DNA from: Escherichia phage VEc74 | Direction: 5' to 3' (one strand) | Length of the DNA stretch: 64,000 bases | Sequence record: MT932213.1 | Part shown: piece after piece, positions 6,683-28,888 of the stretch | Position numbering within the stretch: the first letter of the stretch is position 1 | How the letters are laid out: each line of letters begins with the position of its first letter | Notes under the pieces: model-generated | What the model saw: only the letters and a program-made list of their open reading frames with translations | Databases searched by the model: none | What the model was told of the DNA's origin: nothing | Program-made: the position numbers and the translations under genes

Positions 6683-6965
6683 GAGAAATAATTCCTTGGT
6701 AAGCCCAATAAGGAGGATTAACAGAATCCTCACCAGAGTTTTCTTCAGGAAAATAAACCTGGATAACGAAGCCGGATTCATCAAAGGTGAAATAAGTAGT
6801 AGGCAGTTCACCTAACAAATCGGCACGAGCGTTGATTTCTTCGAGGTCTTGTTCACGTCCAGCCCAGAAGCTTGGGTTCAGACTACATTCATAGAAATAA
6901 TAGTCATTACCGAACATATCAAAACCATTCCAACTCTCTACTACATACCGCTCAAAACTAATCAT
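6654..6965 (-). CDS. Hypothetical protein
   Basis: ORF track, 103 aa. Confidence 0.5.
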   Translation of the reverse strand: MISFERYVVESWNGFDMFGNDYYFYECSLNPSFWAGREQDLEEINARADLLGELPTTYFTFDESGFVIQVYFPEENSGEDSVNPPYWAYQGIISRGTKLELKE

Positions 6966-6967
6966 AA

Positions 6968-7183
6968 TTAAGCCTTTTTATCAAGAACCGCATTCAGCTT
7001 GTTAGTAATTTTATCCAGACGCTCATTGAACTCACTAGAAGATAAGCCCTTTTCTGGAGAAATTAAACTAATCACGAAAAATATAGCAATAAAAGGAATA
7101 AGGAAAATAGCTCCAACTGCCATAAACAGAAAGAATGTTACAGTTGTAAGAAAATCAGCTAAACCTTTACGAAATTTATACAT
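6968..7183 (-). CDS. Small membrane protein (single TM helix)
   Basis: TVTFFLFMAVGAIFLIPFIAIFFVISLI hydrophobic segment. Confidence 0.45.
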   Translation of the reverse strand: MYKFRKGLADFLTTVTFFLFMAVGAIFLIPFIAIFFVISLISPEKGLSSSEFNERLDKITNKLNAVLDKKA

Positions 7184-7298
7184 ATTTTACCCTTAATTGA
7201 TTAACCAAGCATTGATAAGCACTAAACTATACTGCGAATAAAATTCTGGACCAAAATGAAAAATCATATCATTTATAGTATCCATAATATAATTCAAT

Positions 7299-7769
7299 TT
7301 AATCATGTTTCCACACCCCATCGGTATTTGACCAAAGTCGCTGATTATCTGATCCTCGCCACAGCTTTTTAGTCGGAAGATTTTTCTCATACTTCCCATC
7401 AATAATAACATCAACATATTTAAGCATTTCTAGTTGTTTAATATCTTCAAATTTATATCCTGTCCACAACCAAATGCTTTTATTGGGATAAAGATTTTTT
7501 ACTGTTTGAACGATGCAATGAATAACATCTCGGTTATCAGGATAGAGAGGGTCTCCTCCAGTTATAGTTAATCCTTCTATATAATCATTATTCAAACATT
7601 CAATTAATTGTTCTAGTGTTTCACCAGTGAATGGAATACCATTTCTAGCATTCCATGTTGATTTATTATAACACCCTTCACATTTATGCAAACAACCTGT
7701 AACGAAAAGAACGACCCTGCAACCAGGGCCATTCACAAAATCGCAAGGATAAAATCTATCATAATTCAT
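7299..7769 (-). CDS. nrdG: Anaerobic ribonucleotide reductase activating protein (radical SAM)
   Basis: 156 aa; CxxxCxxC cluster motif CLHKCEGCY; adjacent to nrdD. Confidence 0.85.
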   Translation of the reverse strand: MNYDRFYPCDFVNGPGCRVVLFVTGCLHKCEGCYNKSTWNARNGIPFTGETLEQLIECLNNDYIEGLTITGGDPLYPDNRDVIHCIVQTVKNLYPNKSIWLWTGYKFEDIKQLEMLKYVDVIIDGKYEKNLPTKKLWRGSDNQRLWSNTDGVWKHD

Positions 7770-22987: not shown

Positions 22988-23200
22988 TCATTTTTGTCCT
23001 GTATTTACTTTATGCCGATGCACGGCCTTAACTTTATCAAGGTATTTTTCAAAATTTCGCAATCTAGTATAGTCTGCCGGAGATTGGTTGAGTGATACTT
23101 CTCGACGCAAAGCTGAAATGATATTTCCAACTTCCCTACGAATTTCATCTAATTGAAGCACAGTAAGATTGCGAAGTTGCTTTTCAGTTAATTGTAGCAT
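22988..23200 (-). CDS. Hypothetical protein (rI.1 position)
   Basis: ORF track. Confidence 0.5.
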
Positions 23201-23242
23201 ATATACCCCTTTAGTTAGATAAACCTATTTATAACTTTTGCA

Positions 23243-23824
23243 CTAACCGAGCTTTTTAGTTAATTCATTCCAATGTTTTCTACACAAAGAAACATAAATT
23301 TCATCGCCAATACAGATTTGATTACCTTCTTTAACTGGTGTTCCATCTTCCATTAATCGAGCTGTCATAATCGCTTTTTTACCACAATGACAAACTGCTT
23401 TTAGTTCAATAAGTTTATCTGCAATCGCTAAAAGTTCTTTAGAACCTTCAAATAATTTTCCAGCGAAATCAGTCCTTAGCCCATAAGCCATAACAGGAAC
23501 ATTATATGTATCAACAATTCGACTTAATTGATGCACTTGTTCAGTTTTTAAAAACTGAGCTTCATCTACAAATACGCAATGAATATCTTTTTGTGCTTCA
23601 GCCCATTTATAGAACTCGAAAATATCCATATCATCTGTAATAATATTCGCTTCCTGCTTAATTCCAATGCGAGAAACGACTTCACAGACAGAATCGCGAG
23701 TATCAATAGCAGGCTTAAGAACTAATACACTCATTCCACGCTCTTTATAATTATGCGCAGCAGTCAAAAGAGAAGCAGATTTTCCAGCATTCATTGCTGC
23801 ATAAGTAAAAATTAAACTCGCCAT
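23243..23824 (-). CDS. tk: Thymidine kinase
   Basis: 193 aa; P-loop YAAMNAGKS and C-terminal Cys cluster (CHCGKK...C...C). Confidence 0.9.
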   Translation of the reverse strand: MASLIFTYAAMNAGKSASLLTAAHNYKERGMSVLVLKPAIDTRDSVCEVVSRIGIKQEANIITDDMDIFEFYKWAEAQKDIHCVFVDEAQFLKTEQVHQLSRIVDTYNVPVMAYGLRTDFAGKLFEGSKELLAIADKLIELKAVCHCGKKAIMTARLMEDGTPVKEGNQICIGDEIYVSLCRKHWNELTKKLG

Positions 23825-23825
23825 C

Positions 23826-24014
23826 TTAGTCCTTAGTTAAATTTTCTAAATATGTTTCTAAATCATTTTCAGCTTTATCGATAGATTTTACTAATTCGTA
23901 ATATGTTTCGGCATCTCCATAATCAGAAGATAATTCAAAAGACAAATCCTTTTCTAAACTAATAATTTCACCAACTAAAAATAATATTTCGTTCTTTTGT
24001 TCGCGAGTAATCAT
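23826..24014 (-). CDS. Hypothetical acidic small protein (tk.1 position)
   Basis: ORF track. Confidence 0.45.
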   Translation of the reverse strand: MITREQKNEILFLVGEIISLEKDLSFELSSDYGDAETYYELVKSIDKAENDLETYLENLTKD

Positions 24015-24202
24015 AAGGAATTTATATAATCAATGAGTTCTTGTTCTTTATTATCGAATTCTTTAGAAAGTTCTTCATACTCGTTTGCACTAAAAGGACC
24101 ACATTCATTACAAACTTTTTCCAATTCACTATTTTTATCCATAACTTCGTGGATAAGAGAAAAGAGTTTGTCTTTTTGTTCTTTGCTTAAACTCATAACC
24201 AT
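24011..24202 (-). CDS. Hypothetical acidic small protein (tk.2 position)
   Basis: ORF track; resembles preceding ORF in composition. Confidence 0.45.
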   Translation of the reverse strand: MVMSLSKEQKDKLFSLIHEVMDKNSELEKVCNECGPFSANEYEELSKEFDNKEQELIDYINSL

Positions 24203-24420
24203 GTCACCTTTAAGCAGTATTCTTCTACATGCTGTTTACGACCTTTCTTATCAATAAAGGTATATTCAACGAATGTTCCAATGTAGTCTTTATCTACATC
24301 ATGTGGACTATTAATTGGACATTTAGTGCGACAAATGCGTTCCCATTGACGAATAATTACTGCCTTATTCTTTGGGTCATATGGATGTGGATAATGTATA
24401 TTCATAATAATGGTTCCCAA
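24193..24420 (-). CDS. Hypothetical small protein (tk.3 position)
   Basis: ORF track. Confidence 0.45.
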   Translation of the reverse strand: MGTIIMNIHYPHPYDPKNKAVIIRQWERICRTKCPINSPHDVDKDYIGTFVEYTFIDKKGRKQHVEEYCLKVTWL

Positions 24421-24869
24421 TCAACAATCACAATTTCTAATTTAGAGGAATACGTATCTAAAATCCCCTCAATAATATCCCAGTTCCCTTTACCTATGCC
24501 TGCACCAATCCTAGGCATATAGATTGTAGGTTTAATCAGTTTATTTTCACCGAACTCATTTAATTCTAACATACAATTCATTAAAGCGGAATATTCAAAA
24601 TGAGGTCCTGGTTGAAATTGAGTATAAAGATTAAAGCAGTAAGCTTTATGAGTCCTAAAGTATTTTTCATAAACTGAGTAAGAACCAAGTTTAGTTACAT
24701 CACCCCATTCAGTCTGTAATTTATCAGCTTCCAAAATTTTAGGGAAAGCTTTGGTTAATTGACCCGCTACGCCTGAACCCATAGTATGAAAACAATTGCA
24801 TCCATGCGCAATATTTTTACCTTCAGCGAAAAGGGCGACAATATCGCCCTTGATATATTTTACAATCAT
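24402..24869 (-). CDS. Macro-domain protein (putative ADP-ribose binding/hydrolase)
   Basis: 155 aa; Gly-rich loops AHGCNCFHTMGSGVAGQL and PRIGAGIGKG typical of macro domains. Confidence 0.55.
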   Translation of the reverse strand: MIVKYIKGDIVALFAEGKNIAHGCNCFHTMGSGVAGQLTKAFPKILEADKLQTEWGDVTKLGSYSVYEKYFRTHKAYCFNLYTQFQPGPHFEYSALMNCMLELNEFGENKLIKPTIYMPRIGAGIGKGNWDIIEGILDTYSSKLEIVIVDWEPLL

Positions 24870-25213
24870 CTAGTACTCAATCCTCGATTATAAGAATCTA
24901 CCAAACGGTCAACCATTGAATGACAAGCGGCTTTATCTTTCTCCTCCGCAACTGAACATTCTAAAGTATTCCACTTTTTAGCATATCGTTTTAATAATGT
25001 ATCGTTTTTGTATCTGCTTGATTTATCTCTTTCTCCGTCTTTATATGCATATATTAATTTCTGTGCAAATTCAGCTTGGCATGCTTTATTTTTCCCACAA
25101 TAATCTGCCGCAGTGCGGTTTACATATTCTCTAATTTCAGTATATGATGTATCTGCTGACGCAGAAGCAGAAAATGAAATTAATCCTATACATAAAACCA
25201 AAATTTTAGTCAT
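24866..25213 (-). CDS. Secreted Cys-containing protein at the T4 vs position
   Basis: 115 aa; signal peptide MTKILVLCIGLISFSASASA; assignment to vs is by position only. Confidence 0.45.
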   Translation of the reverse strand: MTKILVLCIGLISFSASASADTSYTEIREYVNRTAADYCGKNKACQAEFAQKLIYAYKDGERDKSSRYKNDTLLKRYAKKWNTLECSVAEEKDKAACHSMVDRLVDSYNRGLSTR

Positions 25214-25751
25214 TTACTATTTCCAAAAGTTTATTATTTTTAAGGTAATTAGCCTTTTCTAGGACTTCAGAAGCATATTTAGAACCAGCTTTAACATTCC
25301 ATCCCGAATTATAAGAGGATATTGCTTTTCTTATATCGCCCTTATGTATATTTAACCAATAAGAAAGTTCAATGTACGCCCAGGAAGCTGAATTGGATCG
25401 TTTATTCAACATTCTTTTTATTTCAGCATCGGTCATATTATAACCAAGTTCCTTAACTCTCGCTCGCATAGTAGGCAAATAATTTTGGAACATTCCATAA
25501 GCGTGATGCTTTGGTTTAGATTTTAAATTAACTCCGCCAGAGCTTTCTTGCCATAAAATAGCAGCCATTATATGACCTAATCCGCTCTTGTGGATATTTT
25601 TATGTGTTTTATATTTTCCATCCTTAGAAAATTGTTCCCCGAATTGATACGCGTAACGCATGTTATCGAGTTGGACATTACTGAAAGTATGCTCGGAGCT
25701 ATGTGCCATCATTGAAATGGCCAATAGACCAGCGAGTAGTGCTTTTCTCAT
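25206..25751 (-). CDS. Secreted lytic-transglycosylase-like (SLT) protein
   Basis: Signal peptide MRKALLAGLLAISMMAHS; SLT-like catalytic region ILWQESSGG ... YGMFQN. Confidence 0.6.
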   Translation of the reverse strand: MRKALLAGLLAISMMAHSSEHTFSNVQLDNMRYAYQFGEQFSKDGKYKTHKNIHKSGLGHIMAAILWQESSGGVNLKSKPKHHAYGMFQNYLPTMRARVKELGYNMTDAEIKRMLNKRSNSASWAYIELSYWLNIHKGDIRKAISSYNSGWNVKAGSKYASEVLEKANYLKNNKLLEIVND

Positions 25752-25758
25752 GCTTACC

Positions 25759-26220
25759 TCATTGAGTTTTAATTACTGCTTTAGAAGCCTTTCCTGGTAA
25801 ACGACGACTGTTAATAATTGCCATCCTGCATTGAAGCGACGGGTCTTTGAACTTCGCATTAGGTTTACAAACTGTAAATCCAAGCCAAAGATTTCCATCT
25901 GTGATTTCTAAACGTCCAGGACGATATTCAACCCCATCAATAAAATCCTCGTCAATGTCAGGACGCGGAGGCATACTCAGGAATTCATTAACTTCTAAAA
26001 CATGGTCTTTTATTTTATGGAATAATTCAAAAACGTATGTCTCATCAATCTCCCGTTGAATTGCGCGATCAAGAAGATGCTGAGAATATTTTAGATGAAA
26101 CGATGAGACTCCTGCTGCTTTTGACGCCTCACGAATCTCATTGTTAATTTGACGAAACTCCGACTCAAAGTGACGACGAAGCTTATTTCGACGGATAAAA
26201 ACTTCTGTATTGATAGTCAT
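25759..26220 (-). CDS. regB: Site-specific RNA endonuclease RegB
   Basis: 153 aa matching T4 RegB as I recall it; preceded by early promoter. Confidence 0.8.
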   Translation of the reverse strand: MTINTEVFIRRNKLRRHFESEFRQINNEIREASKAAGVSSFHLKYSQHLLDRAIQREIDETYVFELFHKIKDHVLEVNEFLSMPPRPDIDEDFIDGVEYRPGRLEITDGNLWLGFTVCKPNAKFKDPSLQCRMAIINSRRLPGKASKAVIKTQ

Positions 26221-26244
26221 GTTATTCTCCTCTTAACTGATAGA

Positions 26245-26279
26245 AAAATTATACCACAGTCAAGAGGAAAAGTAAACAG
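26245..26279 (-). promoter_or_regulatory. T4-type early promoter (regB)
   Basis: minus-strand GTTTAC (plus 26272..26277), TGGTATAAT, GAGGAG SD. Confidence 0.5.
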
Positions 26280-26600
26280 TTATTCTTTAAATCTAATCAA
26301 TTTATTCATAGACTTTGAAACTTCGGCACGAACCTCATGTAGATTTTTGAGCTGTTCAAGACGCTGCGTATAGTAAGCAATTTCATCTTCTTCGAGACAG
26401 TCCTGTGAATCTTCTTTAAGATAACGTGCATAGTCCTGGAAAGCTTTACGGACTACTTCCTGGAAGTCATCAAGACTTTGAATTTTCTTAGGAGCAACAG
26501 ATACACGACGAGGGGCAGTATAATACTCATAACCAAACCCTGCGCTTAATTGAGCCATTAGTATTTTTCCTCTGGTTGGAACACTGCACGACAAGCCCAC
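26280..26600 (-). CDS. Hypothetical protein (vs.3 position)
   Basis: ORF track. Confidence 0.5.
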
Positions 26601-26860
26601 ATACTGGCTTCTTTGAGTTTCGTTTTAGCAATAGTTAACTGATCGAGGCTTTCGGCGTAATTCTTCGCGAGTTCATCATCTTCACAGCTATCAAATGCTT
26701 CCCAAAATTCATCGTATAAAGCATCAAAGATAAGTCCTAAACGAACTTCAGCGTCTTTAATAGCATTTACTTTACCGATTTTTTCGTCGGTATGTGGCTT
26801 ATAACCTTTAATATCTTCAATCATATTTGACTTCCTCACCAGTACATAAATCGTATTCAA
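26558..26860 (-). CDS. Hypothetical protein at the vs.4 position (possible Acb2-family cyclic-nucleotide sponge; assignment by synteny only)
   Basis: Fourth ORF after regB in a block collinear with T4 regB-vs.3-vs.4...; start uncertain. Confidence 0.4.
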
Positions 26861-27038
26861 CTAAACGAATAGGTTCATGAATGCCATATCCCTGAACAGA
26901 AATTTCTGTAGTAGGATAAATTCCATTAATATCACCCATGTTCCATGCTTCGTTAAATTGCTGTTCGCCTGAATTACTAAACCATTCGGCGAAAGCATTT
27001 AGCACATCTTCAGAACCTTCAATAATTATCTTTGCCAT
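26817..27038 (-). CDS. Hypothetical small acidic protein (vs.5 position)
   Basis: ORF track. Confidence 0.45.
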   Translation of the reverse strand: MAKIIIEGSEDVLNAFAEWFSNSGEQQFNEAWNMGDINGIYPTTEISVQGYGIHEPIRLVEYDLCTGEEVKYD

Positions 27039-27400
27039 TACAAACTCTCGGTAAAGGTACGAGCGATAACATCGCGCTGCTGTTCCGGAGTCAGAGAGTT
27101 AAAGCGAACTGCATAACCGGATACACGAATGGTCAGCTGCGGATATTTTTCCGGATGCTTAACTGCATCTTCCAGAGTTTCACGACGCAGAACGTTAACG
27201 TTCAGGTGTTGACCACCTTCAATTTTAACTGTAGGCTGTGGCTCAATTTCAATTTCACGGGCATGCAAACCATAGAAAATTTCTGGGTCTACAAAAGAGT
27301 CCTCTTTAAAGGTTTTAGAAACGATAATTCGTGCTTGAATACCATCTTCAAAATAAATAGTACCTTTATGTGTGCCTTCAAGAATTTGATATGCTTTCAT
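27038..27400 (-). CDS. Autonomous glycyl-radical cofactor (GrcA/YfiD-like)
   Basis: 120 aa ending with glycyl-radical signature [26 protein letters not shown]. Confidence 0.8.
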
Positions 27401-27407
27401 ATAAACC

Positions 27408-27737
27408 TCAATTAGAAAATAAATTTATCCAAGATTGTTCTTTAATTAAAAATGGCTCAGAATCATATGCCATTAAACTCTGTGTGATTAGTCCTTTAAA
27501 AGGCCCATCAATAAATTCCATGGTAAAATATGGAATTTTATTCATTAGCCGTGCATTAGGAGCAGTGCACAAAACTCTGCATCCTTTGAATACACCTTTT
27601 TGTAATTTGTATTGTTTGGGATAAAATTCGCTTAAAATGTTGTTATTTGCCAAAATTTCAAAATGATTCACCAATTTATTTTTAATAGTTTTTGGCGAAA
27701 AATAAAGATATTCGAAAAGCTGAGTGTCTGTCATCAT
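27408..27737 (-). CDS. Hypothetical protein (vs.7 position)
   Basis: ORF track trimmed to internal ATG. Confidence 0.4.
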
Positions 27738-28321
27738 TGCATTCCAATTACGAAAAACTGTGGACGAGTAATACCACCAATACAACATTTAATATTACAG
27801 CAGCAGTGTACAGTGTCAATATGGACACTATAAATCTTATCCATATCAGGAGATTTGACAGGCTCATCAATTATATATAAAATTCGCGAAAGCGATAAAC
27901 CTCTGAACTTGCTTCCTTTATTACCAATAAAACTGCGCACAGAATCAGTAAATAAACGAAAACGTATATCATCATTAGAATAACGCGAAAATTCCTTTTT
28001 AATGTTATTTGCAGAAATTTTAGCGTAAGCTGAAGTATTAGAAAGAACAATAACTGTTCCGCCATCATACAACCAATTAGCAGCAAAGTTAGTCACAGCA
28101 ATTGATTTACCGGATTGACGTCCACCATCTAGTCGAAGTGTACAATACTGTTTAAGTAAGTCTTCAAATGGCGGGATATATTCGTTTTTACAAATTTCTT
28201 CTACTCTAGCATCAGAATGGTGTGTAAAAGCATTCATCAGGGATAGATAAGGACCAGTTAAAAATGTTCTCATTTTATTCTCTCTAAATTTGGGCCATTC
28301 CATGGCGCATGAATTGTCCAT
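27734..28321 (-). CDS. P-loop NTPase-like protein (vs.8 position)
   Basis: Walker A-like GGRQSGKS; ATG at 28321 lies inside repeat copy 1. Confidence 0.5.
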   Translation of the reverse strand: MDNSCAMEWPKFRENKMRTFLTGPYLSLMNAFTHHSDARVEEICKNEYIPPFEDLLKQYCTLRLDGGRQSGKSIAVTNFAANWLYDGGTVIVLSNTSAYAKISANNIKKEFSRYSNDDIRFRLFTDSVRSFIGNKGSKFRGLSLSRILYIIDEPVKSPDMDKIYSVHIDTVHCCCNIKCCIGGITRPQFFVIGMQ

Positions 28322-28341
28322 TTCTGTATTTACCCATTACC
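28292..28341 (-). repeat. Direct repeat copy 1 (carries the start codon of 27734..28321)
   Basis: 31-nt core gaattgtccatttctgtatttacccattacc repeated 29/31 at 28947..28977. Confidence 0.6.
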
Positions 28342-28414
28342 GCACTTGGGCTCGACCTTATTACAGGTTGGCGGGAATCCCTCACAGAATCATGAGGTCC
28401 AGGTTGTTCCCATG

Positions 28415-28888
28415 TTATTTGAACGATTTAACGTACTGAATAGAACCTTTACTATTCACAAAGGCAATTTTACCATTTTTGTTATACATAGTAGCAGTAC
28501 GTTGATAGCCATAAGTTTGCTTACCAGATTGATAACCAACTAATGCAAAATTATCTTCACCCATTTTATTCTGTTTAGCGCGAATGCGTTCATGACCATG
28601 TGCCATAAGAACCTTAGCATCACCAGTTGCAATGGATCGACGAGTTTTTTCATCTTCAACTGTATTAACAAAGTCGTCAAATGAATCAAATTTAGCATGA
28701 GATTTATTATACAGTTTTCCATCTACTGCATAATTATATCCTTGTACATCCATCTCAACTTCTGTACCATCATCTAATACAGCAGTAATTTTCTGTCCTT
28801 TTTTAAATTTCAAAAGATCAGTAAAAGATTCAGCAATAATTTGAGAATTAATAGCTGCCTCAGTAATAAATTCTTGATATGTTTTCAT
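28415..28888 (-). CDS. Internal-protein-like capsid-targeted protein (CTS leader MKTYQEFITEA)
   Basis: N-terminus matches the T4 internal-protein capsid-targeting sequence with L/I-x-E cleavage context. Confidence 0.65.
   Translation of the reverse strand: MKTYQEFITEAAINSQIIAESFTDLLKFKKGQKITAVLDDGTEVEMDVQGYNYAVDGKLYNKSHAKFDSFDDFVNTVEDEKTRRSIATGDAKVLMAHGHERIRAKQNKMGEDNFALVGYQSGKQTYGYQRTATMYNKNGKIAFVNSKGSIQYVKSFK

Follow-up and report, generated by a model that had tools for sequence, protein, structure and literature searches.

A glutamine-type macrodomain encoded by the T-even phage gene tk.4/adfM as a likely eraser of DarT2-placed ADP-ribose

The window, by which we mean the whole 64-kb stretch of phage DNA that was analysed, carries on its minus strand an open reading frame (ORF) of 155 codons, running from ATG to TGA at 24402–24869. 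Its extent agrees with the 155-residue ORF described in an earlier, sequence-only reading that did not give the strand; the latter was taken from the ORF list. On the basis of this list, a Pfam match and an AlphaFold2 model, the coding sequence specifies a single-domain macrodomain protein of 155 amino acids followed by a TGA stop. In phage T4 its ortholog is tk.4, lately renamed adfM (anti-DarT factor, macrodomain). The protein of the window and T4 Tk.4 are identical at 154 of 155 positions (99.4%), the region 23000–26300 matched phage T4 and its close relatives in megablast with 98.7% identity at 100% query coverage, and the T4 record lists tk, tk.1, tk.2, tk.3, tk.4, vs, vs.1 and regB in this order, on a single strand throughout. 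The near-identity, the location between vs and tk.3, and a gene order and ATGA overlaps that match those of T4 place the ORF in the T4 Tk.4/AdfM orthologous group, and its earlier placement in the tk-regB early region is correct for this T-even phage block. The sole difference from T4 Tk.4, N90H, sits in a substrate-side loop of the window allele, at a position that varies in the family (Asn in 56, Asp in 18, Gly in 9 and Glu in 7 among 118 aligned homologues). Residue 36 reportedly differs between laboratory T4 sublines (Ser36Gly); its codon (24762–24764) specifies Gly in the window, as in the AF158101 T4 reference and in the family consensus.

The start of tk.4 overlaps the stop of vs (ORF 24866–25213) in an ATGA at 24866–24869 on the minus strand, where the sequence reads AGTACTAGATGATTG, an arrangement that suggests translational coupling of the two genes. 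A second ATGA, at 24402–24405 on the same strand (TTATTATGAATATAC), joins the tk.4 stop to the ATG at which T4 annotation starts tk.3. With this start at 24405, tk.3 encodes 70 amino acids; the mechanical ORF list (window 24193–24420) starts it with a TTG at 24420, giving 75 amino acids and a 19-nt overlap with tk.4. Upstream of the tk.4 ATG, a Shine-Dalgarno-like GAGGA can be read at a distance of 11 nt (24881–24885, minus strand), and a weaker GAG at 6 nt; the GAGGA position coincides with an annotated ribosome-binding site in T4 record X04567.

A consensus scan picked out a candidate sigma-70-like promoter 5′ of regB (26248–26276, minus strand; TTTACT, a 17-nt spacer and TATAAT, with a TG), which could drive a regB-vs.1-vs-tk.4 transcript. 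The candidate is weak, because the scan of 23000–28500 returned as many promoter-like sites as shuffled sequences do (22 versus 23 ± 4.5); terminator-like sites in this region are not in excess either (4 versus 2.8 ± 1.8). The scan found no minus-strand terminator-like site between the candidate promoter and tk.4, and a search with a MotA-box pattern did not find a minus-strand site near tk.4. As both scans equal the shuffles, expression timing rests on published T4 data: a dual RNA-seq and proteomics study assigned tk.4 RNA to the early class and its protein to the middle class (PMC9697503 supplement). By orthology, the earlier description of the gene as early-expressed is thus borne out for its RNA. 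Codons 7–13 of tk.4 (24831–24851) contain an inverted repeat whose stem measures 8 bp (AAGGGCGACAATATCGCCCTT); a T-run follows it on the plus (antisense) strand. The repeat was flagged as terminator-like on that strand, but such sites are no commoner in the region than in shuffles.

Over a larger region of 24 kb (14000–38000), the match to any record reached at most 96–97% identity at ~90% coverage (T2, RB32/33 and T4_ev240) and was broken into 11 aligned pieces. Because even the nearest records are only this similar, the source phage is, as judged from the alignments, a mosaic T-even phage and not T4 itself.

The tk.4 product matched the Pfam Macro profile (PF01661) with 28.1 bits (gathering cut-off 22; E 2.1e-6), spanning residues 22–132 and profile positions 2–113 of 118, and PHROG 335, labelled 'phosphatase', at E 5.7e-65; 197 database homologues were found. 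Together with the tblastn matches described below, this is far more than chance would give. A six-frame profile search of the 64 kb turned up no other macrodomain. An AlphaFold2 model, computed from a 61-sequence alignment, reached a pLDDT of 94.3 and a pTM of 0.90, with strands and helices alternating in the three-layer α/β/α arrangement of a macro fold. The above-threshold profile match and the predicted fold agree with the macro-domain identity first proposed. When the structure was compared with known folds, as the sequence-only reading had proposed for MacroD/Af1521, the macro fold was recovered with confidence, and the outcome named there as a refutation, a model that does not match this fold, did not occur; its class, however, is TARG1-like and not that of MacroD/Af1521. 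In Foldseek searches against the PDB, TARG1, Poa1p, BT1257 and DarG ranked at the top (TM 0.72–0.81), with Af1521 at rank 48 (TM 0.54). The Tk.4 fold belongs to the ALC1/TARG1-like class (TARG1, DarG, Poa1p, SCO6735 and BT1257), not to the MacroD, macroH2A or PARG classes.

The features of a macrodomain ADP-ribose site can be recognized in the sequence as loop 1 (residues 22–37), loop 2 (residues 119–128) and D9, which aligns with TARG1 D20. Both glycine-rich motifs quoted at the outset are found in the translation, HGCNCFHTMGSGVAGQ as residues 22–37 and PRIGAGIGKG as residues 119–128. Orthologues of tk.4 had been matched to the A1pp (macro) domain already in a 2006 comparison of T4-like genomes (PMC1524935). 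The gene itself is thus known: its macro domain was recognized in 2006, and its function was assigned, under the name adfM, in 2025; new in the present analysis are the TARG1-like class, a Gln in place of Lys at the catalytic column and a lineage apart from PhiKZ gp104.

Active-site residues were assigned in a MAFFT alignment of 118 Tk.4 homologues with SCO6735, BT1257, both DarG macrodomains, TARG1 and PhiKZ gp104. The sequences of SCO6735, BT1257, the two DarG macrodomains and TARG1 were authentic PDB sequences recovered from alignment printouts, and that of gp104 was the translation of the construct sequence printed in its paper. The published residues of SCO6735 (H24, N27, K34, Q85, K89 and G128), DarG (N22 and K80), TARG1 (D20, K84 and D125) and PhiKZ gp104 (N23) were all reproduced, and we therefore regard the alignment columns as trustworthy. 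A phmmer pairwise alignment to BT1257 put the NLYTQ motif of Tk.4 elsewhere than the profile and MAFFT alignments, whose placement we preferred because they reproduced the published residue numbers.

Loop 1, delineated by conservation (24759–24806, minus strand), contains H22, N25, C26, G33 and A35, of which N25 (24795–24797) is kept in 117 of the 118 homologues and C26, G33 and A35 in all of them. The N25 column holds N27 in SCO6735, N22 in DarG and N23 in PhiKZ AdfM, and mutating these equivalents lowered activity (PMC9411070, PMC13309987). The N80-L-Y82-T83-Q84 motif (24618–24632, minus strand; from conservation and codon reading) is invariant at N80, Y82 and Q84, while T83 is present in 115 of the 118 homologues. 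At the Q84 column, SCO6735 has Q85 and BT1257 has Q80, whereas a lysine is found in DarG (K80, in the numbering of T. aquaticus and M. tuberculosis DarG), TARG1 (K84) and PhiKZ gp104 (K78). Loop 2, the phosphate-binding loop (24486–24515, minus strand; from conservation), has invariant P119, I121 and G124, the last aligning with G128 of SCO6735, where a G128E mutation led to loss of activity (PMC9411070). The column of TARG1 D125 is occupied by G126 in Tk.4 and by Ala or Gly across the family. As Q84, N25 and G124 share columns with Q85, N27 and G128 of SCO6735, Tk.4 carries a predicted SCO6735-type catalytic core, composed of Gln, Asn and the loop-2 Gly.

Streptomyces coelicolor SCO6735 (PDB 5E3B) and Bacteroides BT1257 (2FG1/2AFC), which are chromosomal whereas Tk.4 is phage-encoded, show ~20–28% identity to Tk.4. 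SCO6735 hydrolyses thymidine-linked ADP-ribose on DNA and rescues DarT toxicity, and all activity is lost in its Q85A or Q85E variants; N27 has been proposed to lock Q85, and a water-initiated mechanism, distinct from Lys chemistry, has been put forward (PMC9411070). Outside the common Gln/Asn/loop-2 Gly core, the two proteins diverge. K34 of SCO6735 corresponds to S32 in Tk.4 (Ala or Ser across the family) and K89 to G88, and the lysine-bearing mobile loop (K89, K93) is ~5 residues shorter in Tk.4; K34 and this loop have been implicated in DNA handling by SCO6735. Tk.4 thus lacks the DNA-positioning lysines and the extended mobile loop of SCO6735. The residue preceding the Gln is Thr in Tk.4, as in DarG and TARG1, but Gly in SCO6735. 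Conversely, C26 (24792–24794), D49 (24723–24725) and Y82 (24624–24626), invariant in 118 of 118 homologues, are family-specific, without a counterpart in SCO6735, BT1257 or the other reference enzymes; the D49 column holds Tyr in DarG, SCO6735, BT1257 and PhiKZ gp104.

Tk.4 has been framed in a preprint (see below) as a DarG homologue with DarG chemistry, but membership in the DarG family is ruled out by the Gln, the lack of the C-terminal domain and the failure of DarG models. Where DarG (PDB 5M31, 5M3E, 5M3I and 7OMU) has its catalytic K80, Tk.4 and each of the 118 homologues carry a Gln. With the NCBIfam DarG equivalog NF048014, Tk.4 scored 30 bits against a cut-off of 250 (positions 2–146 of 338), and with the PADLOC DarG model 35.6 bits (positions 2–145 of 329), compared to 34.5 bits for SCO6735 and 132.9 bits for PhiKZ gp104. 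No darT was found beside tk.4, the neighbours being vs, vs.1, regB and tk.3-tk. Judging from the active-site columns, the chemistry of Tk.4 is probably not the lysine chemistry of DarG.

PhiKZ gp104, also termed AdfM (Cell Rep 2026, PMC13309987), resembles Tk.4 in being a free-standing phage macrodomain directed against DarTG2 and in the conserved Asn (N23 in gp104, N25 in Tk.4), and its in vitro removal of the ADP-ribose that DarT2 attaches to a TNTC oligonucleotide is a biochemical precedent for erasure of such marks by a phage macrodomain (PMC13309987). However, gp104 is DarG-type, with FPTK and K78, while Tk.4 is Gln-type, and gp104 is a protein of the phage nucleus, into which it is imported; T-even phages lack such a compartment. 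In pairwise comparisons, gp104 scored 97 (M. tuberculosis DarG) and 82 bits with the DarG macrodomains but 21 bits with Tk.4, and we therefore rejected a single family comprising T4 AdfM and PhiKZ AdfM. The name AdfM was given independently by two groups to these different proteins. Human TARG1 (C6orf130/OARD1) and yeast Poa1p, whose known substrates are proteins or metabolites, also differ from Tk.4 at the catalytic column; the Lys84/Asp125 dyad of TARG1 is replaced by Q84/G126, and Poa1p has a Ser in the Gln84 column, with its H23 and S30, the residues that were mutated in the Poa1p structures, aligning with H22 and T29 of Tk.4.

Published genetics connect tk.4 to DarTG2. T4 lacking adfA and adfN was found to be still DarTG2-resistant, and a further factor was predicted (2025, PMC11825919). 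According to the passages on tk.4 in a 2025 HIDEN-SEQ preprint, tk.4 was the single T4 gene with significant transposon depletion on a DarTG2 host, and a clean tk.4 knockout sensitised T4 to DarTG2, the gene being named adfM; it was not needed on plain E. coli K-12 and gained importance only with DarTG2 (10.1101/2025.11.20.689424). In the same passages, the authors state that enzymatic removal of ADP-ribose from DNA 'seems likely', i.e. the enzymology is their inference, and neither complementation nor a catalytic mutant is mentioned there (10.1101/2025.11.20.689424). In the literature searched, we found no biochemical assay of T4 Tk.4 or the window allele. The role favoured in the sequence-only reading, erasure of ADP-ribose marks placed by host defences, matches the T4 genetics as given in these passages. 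As T4 and the phage of the window are sister T-even phages that share this gene, the DarTG2 requirement found for T4 tk.4 should transfer to the latter. In the parts of the preprint concerned, vs was the gene most depleted in minimal medium, and the DarTG2 screen was likewise done in minimal medium, at 30 °C (10.1101/2025.11.20.689424); polar or medium effects between the apparently coupled vs (24866–25213) and tk.4 may merit attention.

Like AdfM, AdfN (gene 30.3, NADAR) and AdfA (61.2) of T4 are anti-DarT factors of T-even phages. AdfN, an enzyme described as 'orphan antitoxin-like', undoes DNA ADP-ribosylation and is specific for guanosine marks placed by DarT1, and neither AdfN nor AdfA counters DarTG2 (PMC11825919). 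The NADAR fold of AdfN is unrelated to the Tk.4 macrodomain. Phage T2, which in a genome-level alignment is ~97% identical over ~90% of 14000–38000, tk.4 locus included, is DarTG2-resistant (PMC11825919). In T5, the DarTG2-sensitive control of both DarTG papers, a six-frame search revealed no macrodomain (best hit 9.7 bits, versus 211 bits for the window gene as a positive control); as a consistency check, this finding fits an anti-DarTG2 role of Tk.4. T5 gene T5.102 (6948–7766 of the T5 sequence used) is Sir2-like and annotated as an NAD-dependent deacetylase/ADP-ribosylase.

We suggest, and consider it likely, that Tk.4 is an early-expressed enzyme that removes DarT2-placed ADP-ribose from thymidines of phage single-stranded DNA via a Gln84/Asn25 site. 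According to this model, tk.4 would be transcribed early within the tightly packed regB-vs.1-vs-tk.4-tk.3-tk block, and its product would act as a free-standing 155-residue macrodomain. DarT2 released from host DarTG2 would attach ADP-ribose to thymidines of single-stranded phage DNA, and replication would be blocked. Tk.4/AdfM would grip the ADP-ribose via its two glycine-rich loops and an adenine-contacting D9, and would cleave the ribose-thymine bond, giving back normal DNA, as the DarG antitoxin does. The chemistry that we infer, hydrolysis of ADP-ribosyl-thymidine by a Gln-type mechanism, would employ Q84 next to N25; as in SCO6735, the Gln would position the substrate and an activated water would attack.

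It speaks against this model that Tk.4 lacks the SCO6735 features implicated in DNA handling (K34 and the longer lysine-bearing loop). Nor is protection alone a proof of catalysis, since inactive variants of SCO6735, DarG and TARG1 can inhibit DarT in vitro simply by binding (PMC9411070). Tk.4 might accordingly be a stoichiometric antitoxin mimic that protects chiefly by binding and blocking DarT2, not by hydrolysis. Such a role would be in line with the in vitro inhibition of DarT by SCO6735 Q85A, DarG K80A and TARG1 K84A, which was strongest for SCO6735 (PMC9411070), with the proposal that the ICP1 anti-DarT factor AdfB interacts directly with DarT, and with the purely genetic nature of the T4 tk.4 data in the preprint passages. 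However, the residues conserved in 118 homologues from very different phages are those of the ADP-ribose site (N25, G33, A35, Q84 and G124), a distribution expected of a catalyst rather than of a partner-specific binder. Furthermore, the C-terminal domain with which DarG binds DarT is missing from Tk.4, and the presence of the family in phages of Campylobacter, Vibrio and Microbacterium argues against a toxin-specific interface. We therefore regard blocking of DarT2 as an unlikely main function.

Still less probable, in our estimate, is that Tk.4 acts as a Poa1p-like ADP-ribose-1''-phosphate phosphatase or as an O-acetyl-ADP-ribose deacetylase, with the DarTG2 phenotype arising indirectly. The 'phosphatase' database label and an HxCNC loop common to both proteins point in this direction, as do the loop-1 HGCNC and T29 of Tk.4, which resemble the yeast phosphatase (H23 and S30). 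Yet the label is inherited from a domain name and not from an assay, and Poa1p has a Ser where Tk.4 has its invariant Gln (FTSS versus YTQF). In addition, the sole tk.4 phenotype reported in the preprint passages is restricted to DarTG2, a system with a DNA-modifying toxin, and a metabolite phosphatase offers no obvious path to DarTG2 resistance.

Least probable of all, Tk.4 could be chiefly a de-ADP-ribosylase of protein or RNA, acting on Alt, ModA or ModB marks or on those of other ADP-ribosylating host toxins, the reversal of DarT2 marks being secondary; SCO6735 acts on a protein substrate as well, by a mechanism that its authors consider different (PMC9411070). TARG1, a close structural neighbour, removes ADP-ribose from acidic protein residues and T4 encodes three ADP-ribosyltransferases (Alt, ModA and ModB), but the TARG1 dyad is absent from Tk.4, which has Q84 and G126 at Lys84 and Asp125, and the preprint passages describe tk.4 as mattering only in the presence of DarTG2, not on plain K-12. 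Moreover, Alt and ModA modify arginine residues, and arginine-linked ADP-ribose is, to our knowledge, not a typical macrodomain substrate.

DarTG blocks phages through ADP-ribosylation of phage DNA, and T-even phages combine several countermeasures (AdfA, AdfN and AdfM). Recognizing the ORF as adfM would explain the DarTG2 resistance of such phages and help in choosing or engineering therapeutic phages. The remaining value is mechanistic and modest, and lies in a Gln-type phage macrodomain lineage, not a copy of DarG, that is present in thousands of phage genomes. Going beyond enzymatic removal of DarT2 marks as such, we tentatively raise the idea, possible though rather doubtful at present, that the T-even AdfM family has found a third catalytic way, specific to phages, of erasing ADP-ribose marks from DNA, Gln-type as in SCO6735 but devoid of its DNA-gripping lysines and long loop, and with the invariant residues C26, D49 and Y82 of its own. 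If so, its range or mechanism could differ from that of DarG, extending, e.g., to the marks of several DarT variants or to other ADP-ribosylated nucleic acids, and one name, AdfM, would cover two enzymes that were recruited independently.

Homologues of Tk.4 were detected by tblastn in 2,759 of 50,697 phage records (~5%), comprising Straboviridae and many unrelated phages, on Klebsiella, Salmonella, Pseudomonas, Vibrio, Acinetobacter, Aeromonas, Campylobacter and Microbacterium. A cellular origin via a DarT-linked homologue was considered for two distant homologues labelled as bacterial (Culicoidibacterales, Bacilli) metagenome-assembled genomes, GCA_051660865.1 and GCA_051648945.1, but both lie on T4-like phage contigs and are thus uninformative on a cellular ancestor. 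Among the surrounding T4-like phage genes no DarT was found; the contigs encode RNA ligase 1, PNKP, dCMP deaminase, DNA ligase, a T4 spanin and a Dda-like helicase.
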